Positions 18,301 to 46,624 of a stretch of DNA of 59,442 nt are shown here, piece after piece. Position 1 is the first letter of the stretch. Each line of letters begins with the position of its first letter. The stretch comes from Paraspadella gotoi. Its lineage: Eukaryota > Animalia > Chaetognatha. The notes beneath the pieces were generated by a model. The model was given only the letters and a program-made list of their open reading frames with translations, searched no databases and was not told the DNA's origin. The position numbers were made by a program, and so were the translations under genes. The stretch covers positions 1 to 59,442 of the forward strand of contig JBJCIZ010000448.1 in assembly GCA_051294375.1 (NCBI GenBank), written 5' to 3'.

Positions 18301-20853
18301 CAAAAAACTGTCCGCGATAACTATGTACCTATCCGAAAAGCACTTAAGAGGGAAACCGTGAATTCTCGCAAATTCTTGTCGCTCATCCTTTGAACGAGAA
18401 CACTTTGGACACATTGAAGGAAGATGACAAGAAAATTTAAATCGAATCGACAGAGGAGTGTTCTCGTTTCCGCTAAAAAGCACCTTCGGAGCCTCCCTAA
18501 TTATAGGTTTGAAGACCGGATTCCCCAACACGTCGTGTGACACGTTGGTGCAGTGCGTTGCGGCCTCGATAAGACTTTGCAGTAAGAAAATCCATCGTAG
18601 TGACTAGAATAGTGACAAAAAATAGTATGGTTGATTTTATGCGGTAAAAAATCCACAAGATTCAAGTTGCAACCTGCACAAGTCAAAAATCTCATTTCTT
18701 TTTTCCCTGTGTAGACGTGGGAGTGGTCCAAAGTTTTTTTTAAAGTATAAACCCTACCCGTATACTTATTCTTAGATTTAGTTTGGAATTTTTTTCCACA
18801 CAAATCACAAAAGCTCTGTAGATTATATTTAATTCTTTCCTCTAAAGTTAATTCGTGCAGTTTGGGTATTCCTTTATCTGCTTTATAGACTTTCTGAATA
18901 TATTGGTGTAACTTCCACGCATCGTCCCTGAGTCCTAAAAGAAGTTGAATGAAAAAATCTCTCTCGGTTTGTATTCTCTCATCCAAAAATTTACATCGGG
19001 GTTTTCTTAATTCCTTCGGTAAGGGAAAGTCCTTCTCATAGAGTCCCTTATGTACCAAGCTATAAGACAGCACCTTTTGCTCACTGACGGCGCTATTGGG
19101 AGGGGGGGGGGTGTTGACTGAAACACGTGCGTTTTCGCTGCGATCGATTGGAACGGTGACAGCCTCAAAATCCATGCAGGAAAAAAATAAAGGTTTAATT
19201 TTTTTGTAGAGCATCCCCCTTTCAAACCGAAGAACATTTTTTTCAAGCTCGCCAGTCCACGGATTTTCTACATGGGTCACGTGTACTGTCTTATTTGAAG
19301 CCTCTCGTCGTCCCAGTCCCGACGAGAATGCTTGACATATCTCAATATGATCGGAATAAGTTCTTTCGTTAGCGAACAAAGTAACACACTTGCGGCATAC
19401 ATATCTGAATCTATTTGAATTAAATTTTTTTTCGATGTTTGATTGAAACGATAGCAAAAGCCTGGCCAAGTTAGAAATAAACAGTATATGATCCGTTTCG
19501 TTGTGTTTTAAGTTAAAATTTTTTTCGGGGGGATTCTCTCTGATGCAGGGAGTGTCCGCCAACAAGTCGATTTGATGATAGTTATCGTCGTTATGGTGCG
19601 AGCTCAATGCGATTGGAAAGATCGAATAGGCTTTAAAATTAAGTGCCTTGCGGATTTTAAAAAGATTAAGAGATATCCCCTCAAAAAACGTTAATTCGGG
19701 GTAAAATTTAATTAAAGAATCCGGTATCGGAGAATTTAGTTTTTCAAGCTTCGAGAAATCATTAACGTTTAACCCATCGTCGTCGATATTTATCAAGTTG
19801 CCTGTTTCAATCGCCGAGACAACCTCTTTGGCGTATTTCTTAGGAATACGTGTTAAGGTTTTAGTGCCAAATTTGTTTTCGAGGCTAAGCATTACCCCGT
19901 ACAGAACACATAATTTCGTTCCTTCATTGACCAAAACATAGTTATCCGTATCAAAGACATTCCTCATGAAAGCAGACCGCAATTCGGATTTAAAAATTTT
20001 TTCTTCGTTCAAAGCCCCGTATCTTATCAAATTATTCGTAGAAGGAACGGCGACATGTCGAACGTGCAGTGTGTTGATGTACAAATATGTCCACCCCGAC
20101 TCACGCAAGTCCGACATATAGTGCACGTGCGAAACCAAAAAATTAGTAAAAGAATGCAAGAGGTTTGATATGAAGACTTCCTTGTCTTGGAGCCCTTCCA
20201 TGATAAAATGCTGATTTCTATACGATATCCATTGCGAGATTCTATCGTTCAAGTCGGAGGCTCTCCCGAATTCGACCTCTTTGCGAAAGAAAGAAAAAAA
20301 AGAGAAAAAAAAATGTCAGTTAAATAGATAGAAAGGAAAATAGATAGAAAAAAGAAAGAAAGAAAGAATGAAAGAAAGAAAAAGTAAGAAAAATTAAACA
20401 TATATTATAATATTATTATTATTATCATTATTATTATTATCATCGTCTTTATTATTATCATCATTATTATTATCGTCGTTACTGTCTATGACTAATTTAT
20501 TACACACCTGCAGCGATCCAGACCAGGTAACGGAGAGGATGTTGTTGAGCGTCTCTTGGGGATAGGAGTTGCCTCAAATAAGCTTGAGCGTGTAATAAGT
20601 AGCATCTCAATTCGGTTTCAAGAAGCAGTCTCTTACTACCCTCTAATCGCCAATCTCTCGTCATCACTCGTTTACTAGAAGCTCCCGTAAAGAGGTCACT
20701 GGTTGTATAACTATAGATTCTCAAAGTATTCTCGTTTATTTCCTCCAAGATAGGAGAATTTAAAAGTTCGTTTATCAGTTCATTTTCATCGTCTGANNNN
20801 NNNNNNTCGTTTTGATAGTTTTCCATACTCGATTTTTTAAAAGTTACTGACAT
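15376..20853 (-). CDS. polB: Protein-primed family B DNA polymerase (pPolB), 8 exons, ~1,530 aa
   Basis: Exons 20853(or ATG 20826)-20508, 20278-17860, 17774-17652, 17570-17477, 17387-16548, 16298-16024, 15956-15834, 15759-15376; all GT-AG introns restore frame. Motifs: N-terminal ESGW, C2HC finger, ExoI CMDFEA, EndoVII-like CDLC..DHSH..CAGCNL, ExoII HYSSHYDG, ExoIII YNIWD, PolA YIDANG|LYP, PolB KALSNTINGK, PolC QDTDS, GLYKDE, KSKGVK. One 1-nt frameshift in a T-run near 18590 (probably a sequencing error). Confidence 0.96.
16410..16434. promoter_or_regulatory. Tandem palindromic E-boxes GGTCACGTGACC / GGTCACGTGACT in polB intron 5
   Basis: Two adjacent GTCACGTGAC (USF/MiT-TFE-type) motifs in an otherwise AT-rich intron 16299-16547; minus-strand TATAAAA at 16380-16374. 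Confidence 0.5.
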
Positions 20854-20879
20854 GCGAAAAAGTTAATGTTAGATAATAA

Positions 20880-21575
20880 TCAATTTTTAAGAAAATCATC
20901 CTGTTCTTTCATCGACAAATAAGGGTTTATGCCTTTCGGTGAATAAACTTCAACAAATTGAAAAAAAACTTGTTCAGAGTCTTTAGCGGTATTATCAATA
21001 TCGATATCCTTAACTACGATGCACCGTTCCAAGATTATCCCATCGTGACGTAAGATTTCTGGAGGATGCCTTTCGTCGTACCCTCCAGAGATGTCGCGAA
21101 TCTCCGCCGCTTTCTCGTCCCCCGAACATGAGCTATCGTCGGCTTCTTGAACACTGTAACAAAGAAAAAAGGGATATTAACTCGCGAGAAGAAAAATAGC
21201 ATCTTTTTCTTTTTTTAAAAATTATTTTGTAGGCAACGTGATTGATTAAAATTNNNNNNNNNNNNNNNNNNNNNAAAAAACTCACATCTGAATAAGATCG
21301 CGGATGTGATCTCGAAAGCGAAGGAGTTCTCGCATCCTCCGAGGTCTCACGCGGAAATAGGCGGCACGCGCAAGCGCAAAAAAAGACAGGGGAAGTCTCG
21401 AACGTCCGACTTCGCGAAAACCCGTCGCTTCGTGATGCAGAAGTATCTTTTCAAGCTCTCGATTGTTAATGTCTCTTTTTTCTTCATCGGCGAAAAGATC
21501 ATTCAAGAGTTTCAACACAGCGACGAGACACACTGTCTTTGGAATCGTTTCTAGTTTTAGATCTTCAGAATCCAT
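20880..21575 (-). CDS. Unknown-family paralogue C (2 exons)
   Basis: MDSEDLKLETIPKTVCLVAVLKLL...EATGFREVGRSRLPLSFFALARAAYFR. Phase-2 intron (AT|gtgagt...ttacag|T), then exon VQEADD...DDFLKN*. Confidence 0.7.
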
Positions 21576-21699
21576 TTTTTTTCGCCCTGCTTTTTTTCAA
21601 TCTGGACAAATTTGAAGAAAACACAACATTGATTAAAAAAAAATCGACAAAAAGAACAAAACGAGAGAATATTCTAATACATTTTTTATTTTTACTAAA

Positions 21700-22590
21700 A
21701 CAGTGAGAGGGATCGGATTATTGATTGTACCACATGTCTTTTTTTTCTACCTCCGTAAAAACATTGCCCTCCTCGACGACGTATAGCCGCCCATGTTTCA
21801 CCTCTCCGTCTCTCCTGTCCTCCACCGAAAAAGTTTTTTTTTTCATCACCAAACCATCGACATTCACCACAATCCTATCAGGATTCCTTTCCTCTCTGCC
21901 CTCGTCAATGAATGAAGCTCCTTGGGAATCTCAATTCGATTCGAAGGTTCGTCCGTCGCATCGAGGCTGTTAAAGAAAAGGAGAAAGATTGAGACGAGAT
22001 GATTCGGATCGATTCTTTGTTTCTTTTCATCAAGAAATTGATTTTACGTAAATTTGCAGATAAACAGGTATACTTAAAGTTAAATAAATAAATAAATAAA
22101 TATATTATAAAGAAAAACTTACATTTCTTTCACATTCCAGACGTGTTCAGTAAACCCGTCCAAGTGATTGTCATTTTTGTCAAGAACGGCGAAGAACGTG
22201 TTCGAAGCAGACACCACGAATCAAACTGAGGAGAGAGAGAGAAGGAAGAGAGAGAGAAGCGGGTTGGGAATTAGATCGAATGTTAATTTATTTTTGTATG
22301 AATATGAAATCCTACTTTTGGAGAAAAAAAAATAAAAATAAAAATTATTACCCTATTTCACTAACCAGTAGTCTCGTTCCGCCGAGTTCTGCAAAGCCTT
22401 CATTCTCCTTATCGAAGAGCCTGTCGAGGACGAGTCGATTAGTAACCTTGACGCCAGAGTCGACAAAGGATTCCTTCAAGAATTGAAGGAACGAGAGAAC
22501 GCCTTTCAAGGCGACGGTTCTTTTGGGTTGGAGTCTTCGTCTCCTTCTGACCTCTCTGGCCATCTCTTGCCAAACAGTTAAGGCCTCCAT
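21700..22590 (-). CDS. Unknown-family paralogue B (3 exons; 3' end approximate)
   Basis: MEALTVW...KRTVALKGVLSFL...ENEGFAELGGTRLLVSEIG|LIRGVCF...|LDATDEPSNRIEI; two phase-2 GT-AG introns. Confidence 0.7.
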
Positions 22591-22732
22591 TGTATTTGGA
22601 AAAAAGTTTTCAAATTCTAGTTTCTGATACAAGGGAAATGTTAATAGATATGTTTTCATGTTTTTAAAGAGAGACAAGTACATAGCAGGGTTATATAATT
22701 CTAAGAGAAACTGATAAACTACTTTTGTCTAT

Positions 22733-23491
22733 TTAGTTAAGTCGTAGACGTTTAATTTGTCGTATCAATTCCTCTCTCGCGTTTTTCCCGACCTCGACGT
22801 AAACGTTTCGATAAGACAAAACCGAATCATCGTCGTCGTCATCCTCATCGTCGCCGCTTCTCGTCCAATTCGTGTAATCTGCCGTGAACCTGACGACGTT
22901 CAAGTACGACGTTGCCTTGCGCAATGATGCGTGGGGGATTCCGGCGATGTCGCCCTCCCACGATGTGGTGGGCGTATCTCGGTTTATCACGATCCGAGGC
23001 GCTTGATCGGCGAGGTCAAGACTGTGGGAAACGTAAAAAGCAAAAAAAAAAAAAACGTGTTACATCTGTAAGTAGAAATTTGTTTTTATATTTTTAAAAG
23101 AAAACTATGATCTTACACGTCATCGAGCTTGACTACATAATTTTTAAACTCCCGAGTATGTTTTCATTTTTTTCTGGTTTCTTTCGGAAAAATGCGGCCC
23201 GGTGGAGAGCCCTGACAAAAAAAATTTAATATTAGTTTCATCCGTAGCCCTGTGTAACCGCCGTGTTAATCAATTCATGTTTTTTTGTGATTTATTTCTC
23301 ATTTACCATTCGTGCAATGGCAGTCTGTTGTCTCCCAGTTCTTCGAACCCCTCTTTCTCTTGTCTCATGACCTCTCTTTCAAGATTAGCCTTCGTCGGTC
23401 GACCACGTCGTCCATATTTCTCCTTCAGAAATAGGTGTACTCCCTTGAGGCACACGGTTTTTACAGCTGCGGGGGTTTGTTCTTCAGTCAT
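22733..23491 (-). CDS. Unknown-family paralogue A (3 exons)
   Basis: MTEEQTPAAVKTVCLKGVHLFL...EKEGFEELGDNRLPLHEW|ALHRAAFFR...|LDLADQAPRIVINR...RLRLN*; first intron 23306-23212. Confidence 0.72.
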
Positions 23492-23616
23492 GTCTTTTAG
23501 TTGTTTTTTTAAAAAAACTACAGCAAAACAAAAAACAATTTCTATTTCTGAGGAAAATATTTTCTGACACTTTGAATAACATTTGTTGAATAATACTAAA
23601 TCCAAGCAAAATCAAG

Positions 23617-26438
23617 TTATTTACATTGGCTATACAAAACCTTTGATATTACAGTCCTCCTCGTACCCCCCTCTCCCCCCCCCCCCACAATCTCTCTAAT
23701 CCGACTCTCCGAATCAGATCGAATCGTTTTACTACTCTTCTTTTCTCTTTTTGTTTTTCTGACAAGACTGCGGCGGCGAGCCGGATCGGTAGAGGAGGAA
23801 GAAGAGGAAGGGTCTGAAGAAGAGCAAGAGGACGAGGAAGGGGAAGATGAAGAGTCGGAGGACCAAGATGAAGAGGAGGATAATGAACTAGAGTCGTCTT
23901 TGGAATTTTCCATCGAATTCTGTCTGCCGGGCTTCTTCTTTTCATCGCCGCTCCTCCTCGCGAACAACTGTTTCTTTTTTTGTTTTTCTTCTTTTTTTCG
24001 TCTTTCGACGTCCTCCCCTGCTGCGGCTGCTGACCATCTTGTTTCTTCGTGTTTTTCCTTCTCGTCTCATCGTTACTTTTACTCTCTTCATAACTTTTCC
24101 TTGCCTTTTTCTTTACGCTTTCGTCTTTCCCCTCATCGCCTCTCTCTCTCTCTTTTTTTTTCTGTTTTCGTTTATCGGTCTTGCGTTTGTTCCTATTTGT
24201 ACTTCTCTCTTTTTTTCTTTCTTTTTCTTCATTTTTTTTAAAAGATTCTCCGCTATCTGTTTTCCTTTCCGCGCTTCTTTCTTTTTTCTTATTTTTCTCC
24301 TCTACATTCCGTTCCTTACTTCTTTCTGTTTCGTTCCGGTCTTTACCCTTTTTCTTCTGACTTTCCCTCCCTTCCTTGACCTCGTCGTCAAGAAACAAAC
24401 AACCTCCGCCTACCGATTTTTGTTTTCCCGCTTCGACGGTCTCGTCGATCTCCTCTTCCGTAGAACTCGAAGCAACGAGGTCTTGACGAGAATCCCTGGA
24501 TAGTGAGACAACTTCGCTACAACTCAATTCGGGGTGATACCGCATCGATTGTCTGCTACAACTTGAGCTTGCGGCTTCCTCGTTCTCGTTACTGACGTCG
24601 ATGGGGGTTGGAGAGGAGGTTGAACTGTCGCGAACAAGCGAGGACGATGGAGATTTTTTCGTTACAACTTCCTTCGCCGAATTAGACAGCAAACTCCTGA
24701 ACGATGGTTTACGAGTTGAGAAATTCTGCTCCCTCTCCTTCACCCCAACCACCATTTCCGATTCATCGTTGTCGCTGTGCTCTTTCATCGTCTCGAAAGT
24801 GTTTTCGTCGACCGACTTTTCCGCAACGGGAATATATTCTGAGTGAGACTTCATTTTATTCAAGAAAAGCTTAACCTGTTTCGCTAAAATTTCTGTTTCC
24901 TTCTCTTGTCTGGCGGCGATGGAGATTTTAGTTTCGAAAGGTCGATCGGAGATGAACGGATTTCCGTAGAAATACGAACTGGCGATCATTCTAGGAATAC
25001 AAAGGTTCGTCATATGTTTGTCTCTTTCTGTTTTGTTAGGGAATAACAAAAGACACAAATCACACTTGACCAGAAAATAACTCTCGCTTATTTCAGATTT
25101 TACAGAGTCCCAAAAATATTCGCTCTTAAGCTGTTGATGAAAGGAGAGAAAACGATCTTCCTTACTGTGAAGTAACAGACAGTGTCGATTCAAACAATCT
25201 TCGCAACAGACGATAGATGTAGAAGTATATTTTTCTGGCTGAACGTTGCATCGCCCGCAAACTAGAAGCAAACCGTGTTCGCTTGCGGTTTTGGAAGACT
25301 GGGTCTTTTTCGAGAAATCGCTTAATCTGCCGAGAGGAGAGTGGTGTTTCAGGAAGTGAGCCTTCACCTCCAGACTGTTTTCGAAAACTCGAGNNNNNNN
25401 NNNNNNNNNNNNNNNNNGAGCCTCGGGATTAAACTCGAAAGAAGATTTTTTTTTTACTTGTTCACTAAACGGTGTCGCTGAGACACAGTGAAAGCAATTG
25501 AAGCACATTCCTATTCTATCCTCGTTGTTGATCAAATTGTAGTGGATTCCCTTTTGACTTGCAATTTTCTTGATAACGCTCTCGACGACAGTCGCTGGTA
25601 CATATCGAATTTCCTTTGGATTGCTGTCAAAATATTCCGCGAGAGGAAGGGTTTTTTGCTTGTGTCCCAGATAAAAGTTGGCGTTTCTTCTAGCGAATTC
25701 TCNNNNNNNNNNNNNNNNNNNNNTCGGATCGGAGATGACGCCATTTTCCGCCTTCAAGAAATTCTTAAGTAAATTTTTAAATCCTACATTTTCAAACGAG
25801 ACGAGACAAGGATTGGCCAGCACCAAGTTTAGACAATACATAGGAGTTAAGGTTAAAGGGTACAGGACAGTGGTTTTTCCTTTTTTCTTTGGGACAAGAT
25901 CGTTTTTCTTTTTACTTTCGCAGACAAAGGCGACGAGGGATTCGTAATTCGGAAAGGCCATCGCTTTCACAAGATGCAGGTTTTCGAGGACATGATTGGA
26001 AAGATCATTCCCCCCCCCTTCTTCGTTGCTGTTCAAAACACTCAGACGAATTCTTTCCTTTAAACCGTCGCCTTCCTCCTTGCTGACTGTGATTTTATCT
26101 ACGATCGAATAAATCTGTTTCATTATCTTAACCTTTTCACTCTCACCATCGCGAGGTCTTGAAACGGCCTGAGAAAAAAGTTTTTTTACAGTCTCTTCAC
26201 TCGTCAACGATCCGGCGCTCGAGTTAACTTCCAACCGCCGACTCTCTGGAAACGACATCTCATCCAATTTAGCTAATTTACGTGTAATAAAATGCTCAGG
26301 ATCGGCTAAGGTTTTTGCTAAACCTAAAAAGTTCTGGTGTTTTTCAATCTTGACAATTTTTTTTATATCTCTATTTCTAGTCTTTACCACATTCCAATTT
26401 TTGTTTTTCAAAAAGCATACAACAAACAAATAAAACAA
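23617..26438 (-). CDS. Large Cys/His zinc-finger protein with Ser-rich and Lys/Glu-rich low-complexity C-terminus (~930 aa; start uncertain)
   Basis: 929-aa ORF with CFNCFHC...FENSLEVKAHFLKHH, CGRC...CCEDCLNRHCLLLH and CDLCLLLFPNKTERDKHMTNLC. The tail probably shifts into the Ser-rich 23617-23967 frame. Confidence 0.75.
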
Positions 26439-26604
26439 ACAAGTTTGTTTTGCGTGTCAAATAGTAGTAAGTAGGAAAAGGATATGGGAGAGAGAGTGTG
26501 GGGTTAGCGATTATAGTTTATCGAGAGAGAGAGAGAGAGGGATAAAAAACAAAAAAACATTTGAATAGTCCAACAGTCGGAATCGTCAAGAATTTTTGTC
26601 TTAC

Positions 26605-28510
26605 CTGCTTTTTCTGTTTTTTGTTTGTTTCTTTTTAGCGCAAAACAAGACAAGGGTCGCCTTGCCCCTCCTCCGCTTGCAGTTTAACGTGACGAGAACT
26701 CGCCGCGACAAGGAAAAGAACGGCGTGATTTGGTAGAGAAGACAAGGATCTTTCGTTCGTGGCGAAGAAGAGCGTCGGCGGAGTGTTTCCAGCAAGGAGC
26801 GAACGATCTAAAGAAGAAGAGGGTAAATCGAATTGAAAGCGAGAGAGAGAGAGAGAGAGAGAGAGAGTGCTTTGCGTCAAAACTTTAGACTTTCTTTGGA
26901 GATTAAAAAGTTACGGTTTTGTTTATTATAAATATGAAAAAAAAAAAAAACGGAAAGGTGGGATCTTAATTCGATCGATACATGAACTAAAGCAAAAAAA
27001 GAAAACAAAATGAACAAATAAGTAATCAATCAATCCATTACCTTTTTTTCAGTTTGCGATCGGACGAGCGTCTTGGTCGAGAGCGAGGAGAGAGTGGCAA
27101 CGGTGACAAGAAAGAGAGAGCCCTAAAATAAAAGAAAAAAAGGAAAAAAATGACTTCGAATATAGATCCTAAGATATTTGGAGAGTTCACGTTTGAGGAA
27201 AATCAGGAATATTTAAAAAAAAAGAAAATGGTAACGTTTAACGACGCAAAATCGATTAAAAAAACTCTCTGCATTGGATAGAAAAATTTTACGATGCTTT
27301 CTATCATTTGAAAAGATTTCGCAAAAAGATACACGACCCTTCGTCTCTTATCAGAGGCTTCTCTTACTTAAGAGAGGTTCTAAACGACGAATCGTTGCAT
27401 AGTAACAACAACAACAACAACAACAATAACCTCGAATCGAGCGAAAAAAAAAGGGAAGAAAAAATAAAGCGAAAAAAAAATGTCACCTCAAATCACGTGA
27501 CGAGTTAGAGAACAAGGAACAAGAAACGAAGACCGCCGTCTCAACATCGTCCTCCTCTCCGCCGGGCGAGGAGATTTGGATCCCCGAAATGGGTGATGTC
27601 GTGTCGAGAATTTTCATTAGACGAACGACGACGTCCCGTCGACGGTAAACGACGTGACTCTTCTGAAAAAACAAACAAGGCGAGAATCGTTCTAAAAAAG
27701 GACGCCGAAAAAGAACCGCCTTTAAGGAAATGACGGAGTCGTGGTTTAAAAAATACGGAACTCAATTATCAAGCAAGAGTCAAATAGCGTTACTGCGCCT
27801 GTTTCAAAGTCTACCTCGATGTTATGGAGAAGAATTAATGTATCGTCGAGGAAGTGGTAATTCGACAAAGATGTTTCATGCGGCCCGGTAAATAAATATG
27901 TTGAGGCGACTTCCACAGATTTGCTATCTTACTCTTAAATATACATTTAACATAAATAATTGCTCTCACCTTTTTTCTTCCTTCTTCGCTCTCTCCTGTT
28001 CCGCACGCTCGATCGATCCTTTGTTGACGAGTCAAGATCGTAGGAGGAGGCGGTCGAGTGTGGTGTCCTCTCTCTAGTTTTTTTTTTCCTTTTTCTAAAA
28101 AAAAGGACAATGAGATTAAAACGAAAAAAGAAATCAATTATTACGGGAAATATCAAACAAATAATATTTGTACATAACTAATAATATAATAAATAAAATA
28201 AAATTAACATTTTATTAATGAAAAACAATAGAGAATTCATATATATATTTATTTAAATTACCTTGTTGTTTCTGAGAATGTGCGAAGGTCGAAAATAAAA
28301 AACGGCAGAGAAAAAAATAAAAAATACCGGTGTCGAAGAGAAAAAAAATAGAGAGTGAAAAAGTTTTGATTGACTGGGAAGTACTTTTCAGAAAAAAAAA
28401 TCCCGAAAGATTTTTCATTTTCCTTGCTTTTTTTTTTTCTTTTCTCTCTTTTTTCGACTCTGCCGCTTTGCTCACAAAACGAAGTGGCGAGGTGTCCGAC
28501 TCTGGTCTGA
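26605..28510 (-). other. Putative spliced non-coding leader exons (~28508-28262, ~28095-27970, 27122-27042, 26807-26605)
   Basis: Donors AAG|GTAATT (28261), AAG|GTGAGA (27969), AAG|GTAATG (27041), CAG|GTAAGA (26604). The last three segments have pyrimidine-tract/AG acceptors and contain no ATG. Confidence 0.45.
27150..27900 (+). CDS. Hypothetical protein, frameshifted
   Basis: MTSNIDPKIFGEFTFEENQEYL... continuing as HWIEKFYDAFYHLKRFRKKIHDPSSLIRGFSYLREVL across homopolymer shifts; no recognisable domain. Confidence 0.35.
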
Positions 28511-28550
28511 AGGTAAAAAAAAAAACTCGCGGTCCTCTTTTATAACGCGC
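28500..28550 (-). promoter_or_regulatory. TATA box (TATAAAAG, 28544-28537) with TCAGAC initiator-like motif ~35 nt downstream
   Basis: Reverse strand reads GCGCGTTATAAAAGAGGACCGCG...CCTTCAGACC at the head of the leftward gene block. Confidence 0.5.
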
Positions 28551-29155
28551 CAAAAACCGAAGCTCGTCCTACCTTCTCCTTCCTCGCCCCGGTCCGGTGG
28601 TCGTCTTGTCGTCTTTAGGGGGTCTATTTCGTCGATGGAGGGAAGGGGTTGCTGAGATCATGCGTGTCGAGAGAGGAAGACCGTGACAACGGACGAGATC
28701 AACGCTTATGGTCTTCTTCTTTTTATCTCCGGTTTTGATTGAAAATCAAAACCTTATTTCCTCGAATGAACTCTGAACGAAATTTCGGTGAGAAAAATAA
28801 ACATAAGATGGACGACCGTCATTGCCTTCGACGTGAATGGATACCGTCTCTTATTCTCTGGGAGGGGGGGGGGGGATAGCGCGATTAATGAGAATTCAAT
28901 GTGAAAAGGACTCATCGTCGTCGTCATCGGAATAAACTCCTCTCTGTGATTTCATCCGGTTACGGGTTTCTATTTGAATTTCTTACTGCGACCTCTAAAA
29001 CGGGATTTATGAGAAGTTAATAATACAAACAACAAAACCACCCTCGTATTTGTCTCTCTTCTCTCTCTCTCCTCTCTCTCTCTCTCTCTATCATCGACGC
29101 GGTGACTCTTTTATATTCGTTTCCATTCCCCTCTCCTCTCCTCTCTCAATGTCCC

Positions 29156-29191
<36 letters not shown>

Positions 29192-29379
29192 CCTTCGTTC
29201 TTTTTCCATCCGGAGTAGGAAGACGCGTCCTGGGGAGAGGAGGAGGAGAGGAGAGTGAGTGGTGGGTAGGGGGTAAGCGAAAAGTAAGGGGAGGGGGAGG
29301 GGAGATGGAAAATAAAGGAAAAAGGTAAATAGAGGGGGAAGGAAACGAAGAGGGGGGGGGAAGTAGTTTGAGTCTAACC

Positions 29380-29576
29380 CGCCGCAGCCCGCCGCGCCCG
29401 CCGCAGCCCGCCGCGCGCCGGCGCCCGCGGCCGCCGACGCGGCGCCGCGCCCGCGCGCGCCCCGCCGCCGCGCGCCGCCGCCGCCTGCGGCCGCGGCCGC
29501 CGGCGGGCGGAGCACCCCCGCCCCCCGGCGGGCACCGCCCGCGCGCCGGCGGCGGCGGGGGGGGGGGGGGGGGGCT
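29380..29576. other. ~200-bp almost pure G+C island between the divergent gene blocks, flanked by (CT)n and (GA)n tracts
   Basis: CCGCCGCAGCCCGCCGCGCC... ending in a long G run; (CT)n at ~29053-29190 and (GA)n at ~29650-29682. Confidence 0.6.
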
Positions 29577-29647
29577 TTATATTTCCTTTTAATTTTGTAA
29601 CTTTTAACTTTTAACTTTTTAAAAGTTCGAGAGAGCGAGCGAGCGAC

Positions 29648-35165: not shown

Positions 35166-35387
35166 ATACGAAATCTTGAAGGCCGTCCGTTAAAATAGGT
35201 CCGATGTCACTGTCGACGATTATATATCGTTTTTTCATGCATTTCAAAATACTTTCCCCCTACGCTATGCACCATTTACATTTTGAGTGATGATTTAAAA
35301 TAATCGGAAAATAAATAAGAAAGTAATTTTGTTTCTCTCTTGCTCTCTTTATTTAATAGTACTTAAAAGTAAATTCTGCCACTAATA

Positions 35388-36760: not shown

Positions 36761-36771
36761 AAAAATATCCC

Positions 36772-38765
36772 ATGCCGAGCGATTCGCGTTATATGCAGAA
36801 AAAAATGACATTTTCTATTTTGTATTATAGTTTTTTTTCTTTTGTAATTTTCGCCATGCTCTATCAAGGGGAAGAGAAAAGATTTAAATCCTTTATCGTC
36901 TATATAGAACGTTTAATTCGCCGTTGTCTCCAGAGAATCAACCCAGAAAACGAAAACGCTAAGAAATATAAAGACTTGAAAAGTGACTGTTCGCGAATAA
37001 TTGGATTTAAAATGGAGAGTCTGAGTCGACTGCAGAACGTCACGAACGAGAATTAGAGGAAAACGAACTTATTCTTTTCGTAAATATGTGACATTTTGTT
37101 CCTTTCACACAATCGCCGGAGATCTAGGTATAATCGATTAAATATATTTTTTTATTTTTTTTTTTTACCTTTTAAAATTTTTTCAGCTTTTACCTCAATT
37201 ACGGGATCACAACAAGAATCACACTGTAATCTTGGTATTGCTCGATTTGAATAGTCGGTTCTGTAGTCTTCTCGACTCAGAAAGGGCAAAGGCTTCGGGA
37301 CCCTAAAGAACTTTGAAAAGGCATTACGAACCGATTTATAGCTTCAAGACCCTAAGAAATCATTCAAGTATTCTAACGAATACAGCTGTACTCTGCAATT
37401 AATTTTTTTGGTTTGTTTTATGAAAGCAATTTCTATATTTACTGATAGTTGTCGATATTTATGTCTTAAGAGGGAATAAACCATATTTTTCTCTCAGTGA
37501 AGGCTATGAACTTGTTTAGGAGGATCTGCCTCCTTTAAATTAAAAATATAATAAAAAATTCAAAAAGAACAAATTAATAACACTGGTATCACCTTACCTC
37601 TATACTCATTCACAATCAATATCATCGTAAATAAGAAGCAAATCTCAGAAAGTATGAATATGACACATAATTAAAATGGAACTTAATTACCGTGGGAAAG
37701 TGCCATATTCCGTACGTACCATGTAGACCCTATATATTAGATTTATATTTTATGTGGCTTTCCAATTTAGAATAGTTATCTCTCGCAAAAGTCAATGCTA
37801 TATGATATTATTTCATTGTTACCAGGATACAGTTGGTCCCAAATTCAAGAGCAATCTTCAATTATTCGCATAGACCCACGATTTAATCAACAGCAGTAAT
37901 ACCTGACGTGTAATATGAATTATCAGCAATTTAACTTTAATTAGATGGAATGAGATGACTTTCTCAATTGTATTTAAAACACGCACAAACCACAGTTGCT
38001 TACATATGTATCGGGATCCTTGGTGCAGATGGCCTATACTCCTTTGGCCTTACAATCCGATTAAGAGATTTCTCTCGGTTCGGATTCACTCCCGTAGTAA
38101 ATTTCCTTAAATCTAATAAACTCTTAATTTATAGAAATTCGTAACAAATGATGCTCAGGAAAGCCGTTGTTTCCCTTTTAAACAAAAAAGCCGGGGAAAC
38201 TTGGGACAGTTTCGAGGACATTCAACGGAAGGCGAAAAATATTTTTTCCAAGATCCCTACTACTGAAATTTTAAAGGAAGGTGATCTCGTGCTCCTAATT
38301 CTTCCGGTTAAGAAATTTCGAAAGGAAGCTTCTGTTTTCTATCCTCGCTTTTCCAAAAAAATTTTCACTATCGAATCAGTCGACAGAACCTATTTCCCCA
38401 GAAGATATAAACTTAAAGAGTTTGACGATTCGAAAAGAAAGTTTTACGACTTTGAATTGAACAAAGTCCGTCCGATACAATCATCATCCGCGGATCGTCT
38501 GAGCACGACCGCCTCGGACGAGATATCCCCCAACCAGTCGGTATCGGTTAAGGACGTTGAAGTTCTGTCTGATCAATCCGTGTCGCTTAGATCCGGACGA
38601 GTTTTGCCAGGTCGCGAGAGGGTTATTTATACTGTACAGAGAGAAGGAAGGGAGGAGAGAGTCTTCCCTCAAGTGTTAAAGAAATATGTTAAGGTTTTAG
38701 GGAAAAACGTTTTGAAATATAGCGACGTTTTTAAAACCCCTGAAAAGCGAAAGTACATAATATAA
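36772..38765 (+). CDS. int: Retroviral-like (rve/DDE) Polinton integrase; centre (~37340-38050) degraded or poorly sequenced
   Basis: RTYSFRKYVTFCSFHTIAGDL|..LPQLRDHNKNHTVILVLLDLNSRF (first catalytic Asp; intron 37128-37186), YN..GFTP, and the typical C-terminal EGDLVLL..KKFRKE..PRFSKKIFTIESV..RRYKLKE..KFYDFELNKV. Confidence 0.88.
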
Positions 38766-38785
38766 TATAGATTTTAACATTTAAC

Positions 38786-40336
38786 ATGAGTCTTTTCACT
38801 CTTTATCTTTCAAATAAAAAAATTGAGGAAGAACACCAAGGGACAATGTCTACTACGAGTGACTTCTATATAGATTTAACACAGCAGATTGATCTTAACC
38901 AAACAATTCTACCTTTTAAAAGTCCTTTATCTGAAATGAGCATGAACACGTTTCAAATTACAGGGGTTCCTCTTTCTTTCACAAATGAAAATAAAATTTT
39001 TGTTTCTTTAATAATACCAACGGATATAACCAATGTCAATCAGAATTATGGGATTGAGGAAGTATCAACCAGTAACAATACTTATATGTGCATTACCCTG
39101 GACGATCTGACGATGGCGAGATCCAAAGAGGCTATAACATTTATTAACGAAATCTTGAATAATCATTTAAAAACCTACATAATTTTGAAATTCGCTTCTA
39201 TTATTTCGGATTTTAATCTAATTAATATAAACGCTCTGCAATTCAGCAAACATGACGCTAAACCAGTTCTTTCAAGCGACGATTATAAAATACTAAAGTG
39301 GTATCTTGATTGTAGTGTTTATTTCAGAAAAATAATGCACCAGTCGTTTAACACTTACCTACGTGAAGACCTCGAAGATGAGGTTGACTGGATCTACGAC
39401 ACCTCAATTTCGGCGAATGATGAAGCTAAACTGGTCAATAATAGTAAATATTTAACCCCGATGACTGATAGGAAACAGGTTATACAGAAACTGATCGATT
39501 GCAATAAACTACACGAGAGAGACTTATCGCAGCAACATAAAGATATAAAAGATGCCGCAACCGGGGAAATAGAAAGTTGGCTGCAAGATTTACAAGCTTT
39601 ACAAATCGACGAGGAATCGCAAAAACTTACCGAACAAAGTATTGATTCCTTGAAGAAGTTGAGAAAAGACAATATGCAAGTACTGAAGCTATCAACTATT
39701 ATTTTAAAAAATATTAAACCGGCAGCTCAAAGNNNNNNNNNNGAAATTGTGCAACTGGAACTTAATGAGAGGAAAAACAAATGTCGATTCACCTCTAAAT
39801 TTGATAAATTCATGCAAATCGAATATAAAATTGCACTGAGCATTCATTTTAACAATAAAACCTCGCAACTCCTTGGAGCGGAAAGAGGTAAAGATTTAGT
39901 ATTCACCGTNNNNNNNNNNNNNNNNNNNNNNAGCGGCTCTAAAGCGAAAAGGAAGAGAATAAAGGAAGAATATCACAGAATAGGGGTTGACGAACTACTA
40001 CCGTTCGAAGTGATCCCTTTTCCAAGAACCTTACACTTTTTATCTGACTTAACCATAAATCAATGCAGCTATGATGATTCTCGACTGAACGATACTAACT
40101 TTGCAAATCTGAATGTCTTTCACTCGCAGACTATCACGAACAACAATCTTCGTGAATTTTTCGTCTGTAAAAACGATAACGAACTTGCTTTTCACAGAGT
40201 AAAACAAGGGAAAACGATTTTTGGCGGATTCCGAATATTAATCTTGGATGAATATTTCAACCAAGTTTACTTTCCAAAAAAAACATTTATTTACTTTGGC
40301 ATTTCTTTTCGACCAGTATCGTTGAACGATATCTGA
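38786..40336 (+). CDS. Minor capsid protein (penton, single jelly-roll) with large internal insertion
   Basis: N-terminal FTLYLSN...TTSDFYIDLTQQIDL and C-terminal TLHFLSDL...LAFHRV...FRILILDEYFNQVYF...FGISFRP resemble Polinton penton strands; lies between integrase and MCP. Confidence 0.8.
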   Translation: MSLFTLYLSNKKIEEEHQGTMSTTSDFYIDLTQQIDLNQTILPFKSPLSEMSMNTFQITGVPLSFTNENKIFVSLIIPTDITNVNQNYGIEEVSTSNNTYMCITLDDLTMARSKEAITFINEILNNHLKTYIILKFASIISDFNLININALQFSKHDAKPVLSSDDYKILKWYLDCSVYFRKIMHQSFNTYLREDLEDEVDWIYDTSISANDEAKLVNNSKYLTPMTDRKQVIQKLIDCNKLHERDLSQQHKDIKDAATGEIESWLQDLQALQIDEESQKLTEQSIDSLKKLRKDNMQVLKLSTIILKNIKPAAQXXXXEIVQLELNERKNKCRFTSKFDKFMQIEYKIALSIHFNNKTSQLLGAERGKDLVFTXXXXXXXXSGSKAKRKRIKEEYHRIGVDELLPFEVIPFPRTLHFLSDLTINQCSYDDSRLNDTNFANLNVFHSQTITNNNLREFFVCKNDNELAFHRVKQGKTIFGGFRILILDEYFNQVYFPKKTFIYFGISFRPVSLNDI

Positions 40337-40372
40337 ATCATATTTTAATTTGTTCTTTAATCAATATAGATC

Positions 40373-40687
40373 ATGAGCTGGTATAATTCAGCTCATCAAC
40401 AGAACTCTGGTTTTGACGCCAGCATCGCCAGACTCCTCATTCCTTACTTTGAGACGTCGACCGATCAACAAAGTAGCAACACACAGGAAATCAAGGGAAC
40501 CTCAAATCGACAGAAAACTATTACGGCGGATCAAAAACAACGCTCCCCTCCAGAGAGGAACAACGACGCCGGCCGCAAAGAAAAAAGAAAAAGAAAGGCG
40601 ACCATCGAAAAGACCGTAGAAACCGAAAAGGAATCGAATCGAGTCAAACAGAAAAAACAGCGAGTTAACTCTCGTAATTTCATTTGA
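40373..40687 (+). CDS. Small basic putative virion core/DNA-binding protein
   Basis: 104 aa: QQNSGFDASIARLLIPYF followed by a K/R-rich tail; sits between penton and MCP. Confidence 0.55.
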   Translation: MSWYNSAHQQNSGFDASIARLLIPYFETSTDQQSSNTQEIKGTSNRQKTITADQKQRSPPERNNDAGRKEKRKRKATIEKTVETEKESNRVKQKKQRVNSRNFI

Positions 40688-40722
40688 CCGAGGACCGGGT
40701 AAAAAAAAACAAAAAAAACAAA

Positions 40723-41803
40723 ATGGCGGAAGGGATACGATTCGGGGACGCGCCCCTTTCTCGGATCACGCCTGTGGTTACACCGCAAATTGATTCACTC
40801 TTGAATAACAAAGTTTACCTCGAAGACGGGTGTCTCTTTAACGGTATGAGATAAAAAATCCGTTATTCGAATGTTATCCACACATGTCATACTAAGTACT
40901 TAATTTTTTTTCCTCATTAGGTTATGTAAGAATAAACCCAGGTAAATAGATGTGAAATAAAAATCCTTATAGTCGTTTTTCTTCAGTTTTACACCTTTGT
41001 TAATTCTCTCACCCCCTTTACCAATAAGAGGACACGACCGAACTTTCAAAAGGTGAAAACATTTTCTATTTTAGGGTGAATTTTGTCTATCATTTCATCA
41101 CAACGTATTCTTTCAATTTTTAACTTTAGGAGGGCGAGCCATAAGTTTTAGATTCAACGAGAAAACGGCATTTTTGAATCCACATCGCTTTTTTCTGGAC
41201 ATCGAGATTGTCGCTACTAAAGAAGACGGAAGCGCGTTGACAACTTTTGACGTGTCGACTCTCCCTCTGATGGGTCAGGGGATCCTGGACAGCGTTTCTT
41301 TGAACATAGGATCTTCGCAATTGGTTAAGGTATTAATTGAAACGAATGATTTCTTTTTTCAATGATATTTAAAAATATAACGATTGTTTTAGTACGACAC
41401 GAATTACGGGATCATAGCTCGCCTGAACTACATAACTAAATACAGCCTTGCGGCTCGACAAACTTTTCTTCGAGAGTTCGAATATTATATCGAAGACCAG
41501 AACGACGTCGGCAGCACCGACGTTTCAACTTTCTTCGAATCGAAAACCATTGGCGGGGTCTCGAAAAAAGTACCCAAAGGCGAAAATGGCAAACGAACCG
41601 TTTTGCTGCTCGACAAAAATCCGATTAAATTTCGTTTGTCCTTCTTCTCTCCCCTCTCCACGATGAATTGCCTCTTACCCAACAACCTGGACATAACACT
41701 TCAGTTTTACCTAACTAGTCGTGAGTCTTTAAGTTTGTCAAAAAGACGAAAAAAAAAAAAAACAAAAAAGACATAGAACGATTCTTAATCTCGTCTCTCT
41801 CCG

Positions 41804-41834
<31 letters not shown>

Positions 41835-42768
41835 GGAGAGATACTTTATCACACAGACCGCCGGATTAAAACCGAAATTCTCTGTCAAATGTAATCTAAT
41901 TTTTATTTTTATTGGTAACTTATGACGATTAATCAATAATTCCTTATTACTTTTTAAGCTTGCTGTTTGTATGCCAACGTCATTCTACTGCGTCAGAACC
42001 TCCTGGAGAAAATCGAGAGTGCTTTGATCGCCCGCCCGATCCAAGTCAATTACAATGTGAGAAATACCTAATCATTAAAAATATATAATTATTTGATTTG
42101 ATACTTATTGGTTATTTTTAAGGCCACATTCGCCAAAGTTTACTCATTGGAAACAGGAATTACAAACAAATTTATTACCTTGACGTTAAAGAATAGCTTT
42201 TCCTTCGCCGTTGTCCTACTTCATAAAAACACGGTCCACAACGGTACGCTAGCGTCATCGATCCAAGTATTTGGAAGGGAAAAATTGGCACGTGCATTTC
42301 TCGAAGTAGGGATTAGTTCCAAGATCCCCTCCCTCCCCCTCGGAAATTCGGGTAAGAAAACAATTAAATAAACCGGTATGATCAAATAAAAGTATAATTT
42401 TTTACTCAGGCGACGTGGACGGTTACTCTTTCGTCAACGAGTGGGCGAGGAAAGCATCGTACCAACACGTCTGCGATACATTCAACTTTTTGACGGAAAA
42501 AGGAACTGAGGACTTCACTTTACAGGACTTTCTTAATACACGGTTTATGTTACCCTTCAAACTGTCTCCCTCCGTGAACAATATCAATCTAGACGACGCG
42601 CAGTCGCTACAGTCGACAATAAATCCAGGAAATCAATATCGTTTATACTTAGAGTTTGAGGAGCCTTTAACTCATGTTTTAAACGTAACGGTGGTTTTCA
42701 CGCAAGCTCGATCATTATTAATAAAATCTAACAGGTTGGTCTTCCAATCTGTTGACGTCGAGCAGTAA
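40723..42768 (+). CDS. Double-jelly-roll major capsid protein, 9 exons, 478 aa, intact
   Basis: Exons 40723-40843, 40921-40941, 41029-41052, 41130-41329, 41393-41720, 41834-41890, 41959-42056, 42123-42351, 42410-42768 total 1437 nt with no stops. Motifs AISFRF..FLNPHRFFLDIEIVATKEDGS, NYGIIARLNYITKYS, LLPNNLDITLQF, FMLPFKLSP, YRLYLEFEEPL match the Polinton MCP pattern. Confidence 0.93.
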
Positions 42769-42808
42769 CTGACTAACTAACCACAATTTTAAATGTTATT
42801 TCCAAAGT

Positions 42809-43354
42809 ATGGATTTTACAGAAAATAATCTTGTCACTTCGGACAGTGACTTGAAAAAAATTTTGAAGAAAGACAAATTGAGTTATAATACTATTTTGAA
42901 AGGAAAACTTATTCTTTCTTACGACGAAATGCATAACANNNNNNNNNNTAGAATAAAAAAACATAAAATTGCTATAATAATAAATACTTTATCTACTAAA
43001 GAAGCAGAGTTCGATAAAATCGGTCATTGGTTAATATTATGCGTTTATCTTGTAAATAATGTTGCTGTAATTATTGATCCGTTGGAGAGGCTGGAAGAGG
43101 ATTTTCCGCACGTTAATAGAATAATAATCAATTTTTGTTCAAAAAATTTGTTTTCATTAAAAAGATTGCGCCTGAAATCGCAACATGATAAATCAAAAGC
43201 CTGCGGTTTGCAGATTTTATTCTATTTGAGAATGTTTTCTCATAATAATAATACAAATTATCTTTTTAAACTAAAAACGCTATTGCTAAAATATTCATTA
43301 GCAACAATCGAAAATTTTGTCATAAAATCTGTAATTAAAATGTTTCATTTGTGA
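42809..43354 (+). CDS. Adenain-like (clan CE) capsid maturation cysteine protease
   Basis: IIINT...IGHWLILCV...IIDPLE...SQHDKSKACG: His, Asp, Gln, Cys in adenovirus-protease order; directly after MCP. Confidence 0.9.
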   Translation: MDFTENNLVTSDSDLKKILKKDKLSYNTILKGKLILSYDEMHNXXXXRIKKHKIAIIINTLSTKEAEFDKIGHWLILCVYLVNNVAVIIDPLERLEEDFPHVNRIIINFCSKNLFSLKRLRLKSQHDKSKACGLQILFYLRMFSHNNNTNYLFKLKTLLLKYSLATIENFVIKSVIKMFHL

Positions 43355-43365
43355 TTTGATGCAGG

Positions 43366-43578
43366 ATGCCAGGCGTAGACTTGAACTTAACACCGTTCGT
43401 TAACAGAATTAAGACTTTTTTCTGGAAAGTACTAATCTCAATAGCCCTCATCAGCCTAGTAATTTCAAATTGGCTATCTCTTGAGTTTCCAAACCTCTTT
43501 CACAAGAATGTAAACGATTCCAACGACACCGACTCGAAGAGTGATAAGTGGAATTTAAAATTGTCTGTTTTGAACTGA
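43366..43578 (+). CDS. Small single-pass membrane protein (70 aa)
   Basis: Hydrophobic FFWKVLISIALISLVISNWLSL; acceptor GATGCAG|gATG upstream; AATAAA overlapping the stop. Confidence 0.5.
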   Translation: MPGVDLNLTPFVNRIKTFFWKVLISIALISLVISNWLSLEFPNLFHKNVNDSNDTDSKSDKWNLKLSVLN

Positions 43579-43812
43579 ATAAAAAAAACCAAGAACATGT
43601 TTACTTCGAAGAATATCGATCTGGCACCACTGCAACGGAACTTGCCGCAAACGGAAGCGACAAGGAGGCACCCGCCGTCGACGAAGAAGGAGACAGAAAA
43701 GAAAGAAGGTAAAACGGATGCTCTTTTTACTTTCCCGACCGAAACCAAACGGATCGGTTATTTTTTTTCACTTATATTACAAAGGGACGAGCGAAAAAAT
43801 AGTTTTTGCTAA

Positions 43813-43945
43813 GATTAGGGTGGGGTAGGGTTAGGGTTAAGGAGGTTAGGATTAGGAACAGTTAAGGTTAAGGACGGTTAAAGGTTAGGGATAGTTAGGA
43901 TTAGGGTTAGTTAGGATTAGGGGTAGTTAGGATTAGGAGTAGTTA
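43813..43945 (+). repeat. Degenerate telomere-like (TTAGG/TTAGGG) tract with G-quadruplex motif
   Basis: GATTAGGGTGGGGTAGGGTTAGGGTTAAGGAGGTTAGGATTAGG...GTTAGGATTAGG; four G3 runs at 43818-43836. Confidence 0.8.
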
Positions 43946-44281
43946 CTAGTTACCCTCGGTTTCAGGTTTTGATCAAAGTAGGTTATAGTAATATTCTATT
44001 CTTTTTATCGCAAAGATTTTTTTTTTTCCTTTTGCCCTTATAAGAAGCGGAAAAAAAAAACTGACCGGCGTACCCTAACCGGGTTAAAGTACAATACTTA
44101 CAAACATCACTAACAAAATAGGATATAACATAGGAACTAACACTTCTTTTTTTGCTTTCTTTAAGGGGGGTTCGTCGATAAGAAGGAGGGCGGTCTCGTC
44201 AGTCACTCAACGGAAAACTAGAAGGAAAAAAAGACGATAAAAAAATGAAAGGAACAATTCAAAAGCCGAATCGATTTTAGT

Positions 44282-46624
44282 ATGAGTCACACCGACCGTT
44301 ATGTATTATTAATATTTGTTACTACAATTCATGCCTTGGAATATTTAATATACACTCAAGTTTGAAATTCATTTTTTTCTACAAATCTATTTCTTATTTT
44401 TGACGATGATAATGATAAGAAGCCCACCCAAACGAGTTTTTAAAAATTAGCTTAATGACTTAATTATTTCGAAAAAAGATTTACTTTACCACATCTGTTC
44501 GCTTGTTGCAAAAATCCTTGAAAAGAAAAAAAAAAACTGGAGTGGAAACACAATGACACTTGAAAAATCATTAATAGAAAGAAAAAAATTAGATAACTTG
44601 AGTGAGAAAGGACAAATTAATTGCGGAGTTTTGGCTCATGAAGTTTTAAAATTTTATTCCGGTCCAGCTTCTTTAAACGAAAACGAATAGTAGTACAACC
44701 CGTAGTGGGAGTAAAATCACGTATTGAAAAGATAAGGGTTTTCTTTTTTTTTTAAAAAAAGGGGGGGGGAAAGCATAGCCATTGTTACATGAACACAAAT
44801 ACTAAAACAATAAAAAGACTCTCATCTTAAGCATTGAATTCAAAAAATGGAATTGTTTAAACAAAACTGCATTAAAGTCGCGAGAGTAAAGTGTCATTTT
44901 ACAATTATCAAAAGTTTTCAAATTGTAACTCAAGGACGTTAAAAACGATTGCTTTTTAAATCATTTGAACCCTTCTCCCTCGGACTCTAGTTTAAAATCA
45001 TCAGAAGTCGATTTTAACACTTCGAGAATCCTAAATACACACTCTCCGCTTAATGACCAGACAGAAATTTTTTTACTCGCGATGACCGCAAGATATTCTC
45101 CCCACCTTAAACTCTCCAGAACTAGTTCACCGCTCTTTTTCCAAAAACCTCTTCGTCGATGATACACAGAGATGTTTCTTCATCGATTTCATCACACACT
45201 CTCTCCACCCTTACCAGTCTCCAACAAGAATCGAATCAACATTCACGAAACTGTTCACCCCTCGTTTCTCTCCAACGACAACGAACGCGACGGAATTTAC
45301 CAACGATAGTACGACGGTTAAAGGACCGTTCCCCTTTCGTTTTTCTCCGACGAGGAAACCGCGATGAAAGGGCAATGGGACAGTCACCAGACCATCCAAG
45401 CCTCTTCGTTCCTCTCCGACCGTGGAAAGCACGACGAACAACGCAAATGTCGCAGCACGTGTGTCAGTTTGTTCCTGTTCATTCTGCTCTCCTCACTGAC
45501 CGTTGCAATAATTCCTCCAAAAAAATTCGTCGTCGATCGGTACGTTTGTTAATTCATTGCTTTTAAGACAAAATACAAACCACGTAACAGTTTTTTTTGT
45601 TTTTTTTCAGCTAAGCGAGAGAATCCTGGATTGGAGAAGACGACGTTTATGTAACGAGATCAGGAGACGACAAGAAATACAACTTCGACAAATTCCGTTC
45701 ACAGTCGAAAATCCGGCTTCTATTTCTCTTCCGAATCAAGATAATCCTGCAACTCCGAGCGAGGAAAACGCGAACTCAGTCACGTCGTTTTCTTCCCCGT
45801 CTCATGGTAATTTTTCCTCTCTCTCTCGCTAACTCGCTCGACTCAATCAGGTTCTTACTAAATCACTCACACACTTCTCAATCACTCTCGCTCAATCACT
45901 CCTCAATCACTCACTCACTCGATCACTCTCTGCTCGATCTCCCTTCACTCAATCACTAGCTCAATCACTCTCTCCTCTCTCTCTCTCTCTTTACTTTTAT
46001 ACAATAACCAAACTCAATAACTTAATGTGTTATTATTTTATTGTATACTATACCATTTTTGTTCAGCTCCTCCCGCTCTTCTCCAGAACTTAGCACGGTA
46101 TGAAAACGACTACGAGGAAATCTCAAATTTGGAGGTGGGACGGTTTCGTCGAATCGATAAGGCGAGAAATGACTTTAATTAATTAACGAATCACTTTTAT
46201 TAATTATTTGAAATATGTTACAGTTTGTCTCAAATGCACAAGAACCTGCTTGTACCAGAACAGGGAGACGAAAACTATTTAAACCTGTCAGGTGAAACAA
46301 ATCAAATTCATATTTCTTTTATTAAAACATCTCAAAAAGACTAAAACTTTCTTTGTTTATTTTCTGCTACAGTTTGTTCAAATGCACAAAACCCGCTGTG
46401 TTCAGAAACAGGGAACGAAAACTATTTAGAAACTGTCAGGTGAATGCAAATAAATTCATAACTTTTTTATTAAAAACATCTCAAAAAGACTAAAACTGTT
46501 TCTTATTTTATTTCTGCTAGCTCGGTTCACACGAAAACTCTGACGTTCAACTTCCATTGGCCTCCAAAGCGAAAACAAAACAAAAAATAAACTTTTCTTG
46601 GTTTTAAGCGGGAAGATGATTTAA
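44282..46624 (+). CDS. Putative type-I membrane glycoprotein: signal peptide, Cys-containing ectodomain, S/T-rich stalk, TM helix, Tyr/Pro-motif cytoplasmic tail (multi-exon, frameshifted)
   Basis: MSHTDRYVLLIFVTTIHA; S/T-rich stalk ~44965-45440; TM SLFLFILLSSLTVAII followed by a basic stretch; intron 45540-45610; tail exons encoding DEN(D/N)YEEI, EQGDENYLEPV, ENYLETV and VQLPLPPKRKK...KMI*. Consensus taken from both copies. Confidence 0.62.

Follow-up and report, generated by a model that had tools for sequence, protein, structure and literature searches.

Gene content of the element

The sequence analyzed here is a 59,442-nt stretch from the chaetognath Paraspadella gotoi (GenBank assembly GCA_051294375.1, contig JBJCIZ010000448.1, positions 1 to 59,442), and "the window" refers to this whole stretch. 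It contains an intron-rich variant of a Polinton-like virus, which is apparently integrated in the eukaryote genome. As a preliminary description of the DNA had reported, the genes are co-oriented in two divergent blocks, which span ~13.9 to 44.7 kb. The core genes are cut by many short host-type introns, whose removal was seen for the polymerase gene polB in an RNA-like sequencing run. About 5 to 7 of the genes start behind acceptor-like signals that have no donor partner.

Acceptors were scored with a model trained on 27 internal GT-AG introns, which were chosen by hand and have a median length of 79 nt. Their leave-one-out scores have a median of 5.5 bits and range from −4 to 11. An acceptor of at least 2 bits was called good, and in counts at gene starts it also had to lie within 40 nt of the start. 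The genes and the sites ahead of them are as follows.

23649..26258, minus strand: large Cys/Lys/Ser-rich open reading frame (ORF), 869 aa as assembled, with indels near the 3′ end; no good acceptor; TATAAAA at 26367
22734..23518, minus strand: paralogue A; acceptor 23518, 4.6 bits
21718..22624, minus strand: paralogue B; donor-less acceptor 22624, 4.8 bits
20880..21602, minus strand: paralogue C; weak acceptor 21602, −0.6 bits; AATAAA upstream; in-frame stop before the ATG
15376..20847, minus strand: protein-primed-type DNA polymerase B gene (polB), 7 introns; acceptor 20847 (4.2 bits, with CTAAC) closing a 33-nt spacer
13960..15343, minus strand: multi-exon gene after polB; acceptor 15343 (0.8 bits) closing a 33-nt spacer; ATG 15283
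29305..29324, plus strand: candidate first ATPase coding exon (MENKGK), predicted; donor 29325, 5.5 bits
29736..30006, plus strand: putative ATPase exon; Walker-A-like GKS; same frame as 29305; acceptor 29735, 12.8 bits
35359..38765, plus strand: multi-exon gene with ATG 35388, putative integrase; donor-less acceptor 35359 (3.8 bits) after AATAAA
38786..40336, plus strand: 516-aa intron-free ORF, putative minor capsid; no acceptor
40369..40687, plus strand: basic 104-aa "core" ORF; acceptor 40369 (3.0 bits) closing a 33-nt spacer
40723..42768, plus strand: putative major capsid protein gene, 8 exons; no acceptor before the ATG
42807..43354, plus strand: putative cysteine protease ORF; acceptor 42807 (3.1 bits, with CTAAC) closing a 39-nt spacer
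43364..43578, plus strand: 70-aa hydrophobic (transmembrane, TM) ORF; borderline acceptor, 1.3 bits; 10-nt spacer
44165..44365, plus strand: claimed glycoprotein start; AG 44280 at −4.7 bits with an ORF of 27 codons; strong acceptor 44165, 10.2 bits

PolB scored 0.93 to PF03175 clusters in the Atlas (recognition 2650), as expected of a protein-primed-type PolB. It has 282 relatives at E≤0.001, and the 150 listed are 24–43% identical to it. Three of the 11 relatives scanned matched PF03175, and a Pfam search with single polB exons gave no direct match. Fragments of less than 400 aa make up 51 of the 66 closest relatives, a pattern consistent with split genes or with short contigs. The last exon of the major capsid gene scored 0.97 to double jelly-roll (DJR)-like clusters (PF21738 in 12% of members, or PF04451 in 22%), at a low recognition value of 1730. 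The protease ORF matched Peptidase_C48 with an E value of 0.028, below the cutoff.

The GKS of the 29736–30006 exon was spotted by eye only, and we take it to be the Walker-A-like motif of an ATPase. The gene from 35388 presumably encodes an integrase, and the ORF at 38786 presumably a minor capsid protein. The labels ATPase, integrase and minor capsid come from motifs and position only. Single exons of the 35388 gene gave no match to the integrase (rve) family, and structure prediction for the 38786 ORF from its single sequence was uninformative (pLDDT 34.5). Word-based protein searches with the element proteins returned no match, nothing of use came from PHROGs, PDB sequences or phage records, and related loci were absent from the viral and metagenome contigs searched. 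Paralogues A, B and C stand in tandem directly upstream of polB (20880–23491, minus strand); their first exons are 37–40% identical and match no known family.

Introns of the core genes

Nine public sequencing runs (one organism, three studies) hold 65–68% of the words of 35000–44400, so the element is real DNA. Four of the runs were aligned to 13960–31000, and the comparison with RNA is confined to that interval. All runs consist of contigs and none is recorded as RNA; X8 is termed RNA-like solely on account of its joints. X9 is apparently the same data, and the two were counted once. X8 also carries unspliced cover at a depth of 9–15 and therefore contains DNA or precursor RNA. Contigs drop rare forms.

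The major capsid gene reads through its 8 exons in a continuous frame of 470 codons to a single stop, with 7 introns. In the 3′ part of polB, too, 7 exons share one frame that ends at a single stop, and the phase-1 join in its 5′ part is stop-free by a per-frame check. Two X8 records, of 1058 and 307 letters, equal the predicted sums of spliced polB exons plus the branch-shared bases, exact to the base. X8 also skips 67 nt bounded by CT..AC. Predicted donors stand at 4 of the 14 X8 record ends listed (15834, 16548, 17860 and 27042), compared with 0.24% of positions. Three of these four donors are in the training set, and the fourth, 27041, is outside it. At each of these donors, where X8 records end, the DNA runs X1 and X4 read on without a break.

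Two features of individual genes were also seen. The capsid gene has a micro-exon of 21 nt (40921–40941, plus strand), and a second one of 24 nt is possible at 41029–41052, which leaves the frame unchanged. A weak donor, GTCGGT at 15204 (minus strand), meets the end of an X8 piece (15205); the same piece spans the 15343 acceptor and reaches at least the polB stop.

Acceptor-like sites ahead of start codons

The preliminary description stated that most ORFs have a splice acceptor just upstream of the ATG and named ten such sites. All ten AG dinucleotides and their ATGs lie where it had placed them, and 7 of the 10 sites reach 2 bits (mean of dinucleotide shuffles 2.8, p = 0.001). These sites had been preselected for the feature, and 17 definable gene starts were used as a wider set. 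Here "most" did not hold, as only 7 of the 17 starts have a good site. This count gave p = 0.015 against shuffles, p = 0.052 against AT-rich non-start ATGs, 21% of which reach 2 bits, and p = 0.0006 against an all-ATG control. When A and the ATPase were left out, 5 of 15 starts passed (p = 0.035 against shuffles, 0.20 against the AT-rich ATGs). The 11 stop-to-ATG spacers were also shuffled singly, which is a conservative control, U-richness being part of the signal; none gave P below 0.065, and the combined p was 0.106. The background scans left out 230 nt of the right block. Against the general background, the enrichment that the description had called for is clear; against controls matched in composition it is marginal.

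The sites that survive are those of B, polB, the 35388 gene, core and protease, whereas those of C, TM and the gene after polB are borderline. The 33- and 39-nt spacers in the list are measured from the stop of the upstream gene to the AG. No donor lies within the spacers of polB, the gene after polB, core, protease, TM or 35388. Use of such donor-less acceptors would therefore require a donor past the upstream gene or one supplied in trans. The CTAAC branch motif reported at polB is present there and also at the protease site, and 7% of all AGs have one. AATAAA or ATTAAA was found in 2 of 12 spacers. No TATA with at most one mismatch was found at −36 to −22 of the 11 pre-ATG sites, and no shared motif beyond A/T runs. 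Separate TATA-plus-initiator promoters for each gene were considered and rejected (0 of 11).

Seven starts that had not been claimed (the large ORF at 26258, the gene after polB, 27150, 31888, 38786, the capsid gene at 40723 and 43597) have no site within 40 nt. The site of the gene after polB (0.8 bits) is ~60 nt away, and that of the 27150 start (8.1 bits) is 97 nt away and has donors close by. In 40560–40723, ahead of the capsid ATG, the best AG scores −4.5 bits.

Individual sites differ in kind. At A, splicing from a donor at 23624 (3.0 bits) would remove 107 nt and leave A in phase with a Ser-rich frame of the upstream ORF, and the acceptor may belong to an ordinary coding intron. The similarity of A to B and C, however, begins just past each ATG, which would rather favour a free-standing gene. 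The ATPase site is best read as that of an ordinary 411-nt coding intron: the join from 29305–29324 to the acceptor at 29735 is in frame with no indel needed, in a region that is noisy, and ATG 29738, which had been taken as the gene start, opens only MMSGSM and a stop in the window. At 35388 and C, in-frame stops lie between the AG and the ATG, so these are not continuation exons. The AG claimed for the glycoprotein has no pyrimidine tract, and its score is unlike that of an acceptor. A better candidate lies at 44137–44165 (plus strand), an acceptor with CTAAC 80 and 117 nt ahead of ATGs 44245 and 44282.

The phase-2 donor after MENKGK (29305–29325) is in phase with the acceptors of the ATPase, protease, TM and 44280. 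MENKGK could be a shared first exon, or the phasing could reflect mere AG-N-ATG geometry. The predicted first ATPase intron, between the gene blocks, contains ~200 nt of CCG-rich sequence with a very high G+C content (29378–29575).

A candidate leader on the minus strand

Leader exons had been proposed at 26.6–28.5 kb. The features found there are as follows.

28538..28544, minus strand: TATA-type element TATAAAAG, candidate promoter of the left unit, predicted; ~35 nt before a TCAG initiator-like site at 28509
28262..28510, minus strand: candidate leader exon 1, predicted; donor 28261 (5.8 bits), alternative 28327; one ATG (28418), where the assembly is noisy
27970..28094, minus strand: candidate leader exon, predicted, 125 nt, ATG-free; acceptor 9.8 bits, donor 6.4 bits
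27042..27122, minus strand: candidate leader exon, 81 nt, ATG-free; acceptor 13.6 bits, donor 3.7 bits
26605..26807, minus strand: last candidate leader exon, 203 nt, ATG-free; acceptor 6.9 bits, donor 26604 6.4 bits

Only 2 of the 36 TATA 7-mers of the element are paired with such an initiator, and the other one lies within a polB exon. An X8 contig stops exactly at 27042, and the DNA runs X1 and X4 extend to 26994. Another X8 piece ends at ~26809. The two ends agree with an intron from 27041 to 26808, and use of donor 27041 is supported. The last donor, 26604, shares the best donor score among those listed and is unpaired, with no AG above −1.2 bits ahead of ATG 26258. The three ATG-free exons total 409 nt, in which ~5 ATGs are expected (p = 0.007–0.008). 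Strong acceptors occur at 5 per kb in the leader chain and at ~2.2 per kb on the antisense strands. An Rfam scan of 13900–31500 gave no match.

The largest leader intron holds an ORF-like stretch on the opposite strand (27150–27900, plus), with an acceptor at 27052 (8.1 bits), donors at 26823 and 26958, and AATAAA at 28188 and 28197. It may be the source of the X8 cover of 27042–28152.

Assembly and flanking sequence

The assembly is gapped and in parts noisy, with 19 N runs in the window. Positions 1036–11420 are an inverted copy of 13849–23658, at 84% identity, with many indels and an N gap at the border. This copy looks more like a raw long-read gap fill than a second element and was excluded as independent evidence. 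Terminal inverted repeats were searched for with blastn of 1–14200 against 43501–59442, which returned nothing; the left end falls within gaps and the noisy duplicate. At 33754–34225, ~220 nt are duplicated over an N gap, a probable assembly artefact. Degenerate telomere-like TTAGG/TTAGGG repeats lie inside the right block (43810–43945). Beyond it, 45204–50716 and 52500–59442 contain a 1.8-kb direct repeat (88%), repeats of 140–185 nt and a ~540-nt satellite with subunits of 50–55 nt. The CpG observed/expected ratio is 1.2–1.4 in the element and flanks alike.

Comparison with known systems

Statements drawn from the papers cited below refer to the available parts of each source. The element resembles Polintons, Mavericks and adintoviruses in its PF03175-type PolB, DJR-like capsid, protease-like and ATPase-like genes and two divergent blocks (PMC8502044; PMC8097293; 10.1101/2022.07.12.499685). 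It differs in its introns. Published descriptions give intact vertebrate Mavericks, and the core genes of a nematode Maverick, as free of introns (PMC8097293; 10.1101/2022.07.12.499685), whereas here 7 introns interrupt polB and another 7 the capsid gene. It differs further in that no terminal inverted repeats were found in this window and in the distance of its nearest listed PolB relatives. A term search of the adintovirus paper, and its section 7, gave no mention of splicing (PMC8502044). No published Polinton with a spliced or tripartite leader turned up in a literature search that lacked most subscription papers, and neither a leader nor trans-splicing is described for Polintons in the parts available of PMC10748475, PMC12721341, PMC12166617, 10.1101/2024.01.15.575659 and 10.1101/2024.03.23.586382.

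In the marbled eel adomavirus, acceptors lie immediately before the ATGs of the late (LO) genes, which share a three-exon leader (10.1101/341131). Acceptor-like sites directly before ATGs, a multi-exon leader (a candidate one here) and a presumed adenain gene are common to both systems. The adomavirus acceptors have been shown to be used and serve virion genes, whereas here the joints are predicted, the leader points toward the polymerase side and no acceptor precedes the capsid genes.

The adenovirus tripartite leader is AUG-free and is spliced to many bodies (PMC7851563). The likeness to the adenovirus major late and E2 units extends to an AUG-free multi-exon leader, alternative 3′ sites and an opposite-strand ORF in a leader intron (PMC7851563). 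The hexon gene has an acceptor, unlike the capsid gene here. The pattern of one promoter with AUG-free exons is found in the sequence of the left block only, exon 1 holds an ATG, and one intron is backed by contig ends. Adenovirus gene bodies are mostly unspliced.

Operons resolved by a spliced leader (SL) in Ciona, Oikopleura and Caenorhabditis also have co-oriented genes with very short spacers that end in a donor-less AG (PMC1488885). The spacers are 23–30 nt in Oikopleura and ~100 nt in Caenorhabditis, and there are none in Ciona (PMC1488885). Every downstream cistron of such operons is trans-spliced, whereas here about one third of the downstream genes have a good site.

Mode of expression

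We tentatively favour the view that the left block shares a leader spliced in cis to alternative 3′ sites. It is the most economical account of a lone canonical promoter, AUG-free exons, a strong donor that is unpaired, and acceptors that have no donor. Transcription of the left block would start from one promoter, predicted near 28544, and a short, AUG-poor, multi-exon leader would be cis-spliced to alternative 3′ sites just ahead of start codons. Its leftward targets would be B and polB, and possibly A, C and the gene after polB. Donor 26604, as predicted from the sequence, would be the point from which the leader reaches each gene, and the promoter, the exons away from donor 27041 and every leader-to-gene joint are likewise predictions. 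By analogy, the rightward acceptors of 35388, core, protease and TM might be served in the same way, perhaps from donor 29325. Both capsid genes and the large ORF would be expressed otherwise, by an own promoter, leaky scanning or reinitiation. A wider reading, possible if doubtful, gives an integrated Polinton lineage an adenovirus-style programme. On one strand, a single promoter and a non-coding leader of four exons would feed a series of alternative acceptors at the polymerase-side genes. The opposite strand would hold a mirror unit whose 20-nt first exon (donor 29325) is in phase with ATPase, protease and TM, and the whole would be superimposed on ~30 ordinary introns.

Several results weigh against a shared leader, beginning with the marginal enrichment against composition-matched controls. 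The lack of ATGs in the chain exons has p = 0.29 under dinucleotide shuffles, and every chain exon has an open frame. One X8 record runs unbroken across 27123, 27969 and 28095, so that exon 27970..28094 is unspliced there, and X8 contigs at a depth of 11–12 cross the acceptors of A and C unspliced. A leader-like exon chain does lie at 26.6–28.5 kb, where one had been proposed, with a predicted canonical promoter at its head and one intron backed by RNA-like contig ends. Among the joints listed (15 of 38) in 13960–31000, however, none links the leader to a gene or adds an SL. The right block yielded no ATG-free leader (the RNA comparison ended at 31000), and the capsid gene, the main target in adenovirus, has no acceptor. 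Scores under −1 bit occur among the internal acceptors as well (4 of 27). Donor 26604 might therefore be joined to a weak site ahead of ATG 26258, in which case the chain would be the 5′ untranslated region of the 26258 ORF alone.

This last point belongs to a view that we consider somewhat less likely, namely that there is no common mechanism. The ATPase site, perhaps with that of A, would be an ordinary intron, the other sites U-rich look-alike spacers, the promoters TATA-less and located inside the upstream gene, and the chain the untranslated region of the large ORF. In-frame donor partners do exist for the ATPase (29325) and A (23624), AT-rich non-start ATGs reach 2 bits often, and both the reduced set of 15 starts, when compared with those ATGs, and the combined spacer test are within chance. 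The feature is also missing at seven unclaimed starts, the unspliced X8 contigs across A and C agree with it, and an A at −3 of the ATG accounts for half of each AG-N-ATG. However, the enrichment over shuffles remains with 17 and with 15 starts, an AG closes three spacers of exactly 33 nt and a fourth of 39 nt, two of them with CTAAC, and neither TATA nor a shared motif beyond A/T runs precedes the starts. The extent of the similarity of A to B and C likewise points to a free-standing A. A host SL added in trans at the donor-less acceptors, which would resolve polycistronic precursors as in tunicate, nematode and flatworm operons, is in our view unlikely. The donor-less acceptors and short spacers do agree with operon spacing as given in the available part of PMC1488885, and short SL tips would be invisible in contigs. 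But the leader-like chain in cis with its unpaired strong donor would be superfluous, and 38786, 40723, 43597 and 31888 have no acceptor within 40 nt, where all downstream cistrons should have one. Polyadenylation-type AATAAA or ATTAAA signals are found in only 2 of 12 spacers; Ciona operons, though, also have no intercistronic DNA.

The adenovirus-like or trans-spliced expression first suggested for the element therefore holds in part. Splicing is real, and donor-less acceptors do stand in spacers of 33–39 nt, but two of the sites are simpler as coding introns, one is not an acceptor, the feature does not extend to the capsid genes, and the right block showed no ATG-free leader.

Polintons are the proposed ancestors of adenoviruses, yet little has been published on the expression of their packed genes. 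The firmer result is a transcribed Polinton-like virus with heavily spliced core genes, of a kind that surveys based on ORFs would miss. A shared leader, if true, would mean that an integrating Polinton uses the adenovirus strategy. Under the wider reading with a mirror unit, the lineage would be a surviving link between Polintons and the transcription units of adenoviruses.

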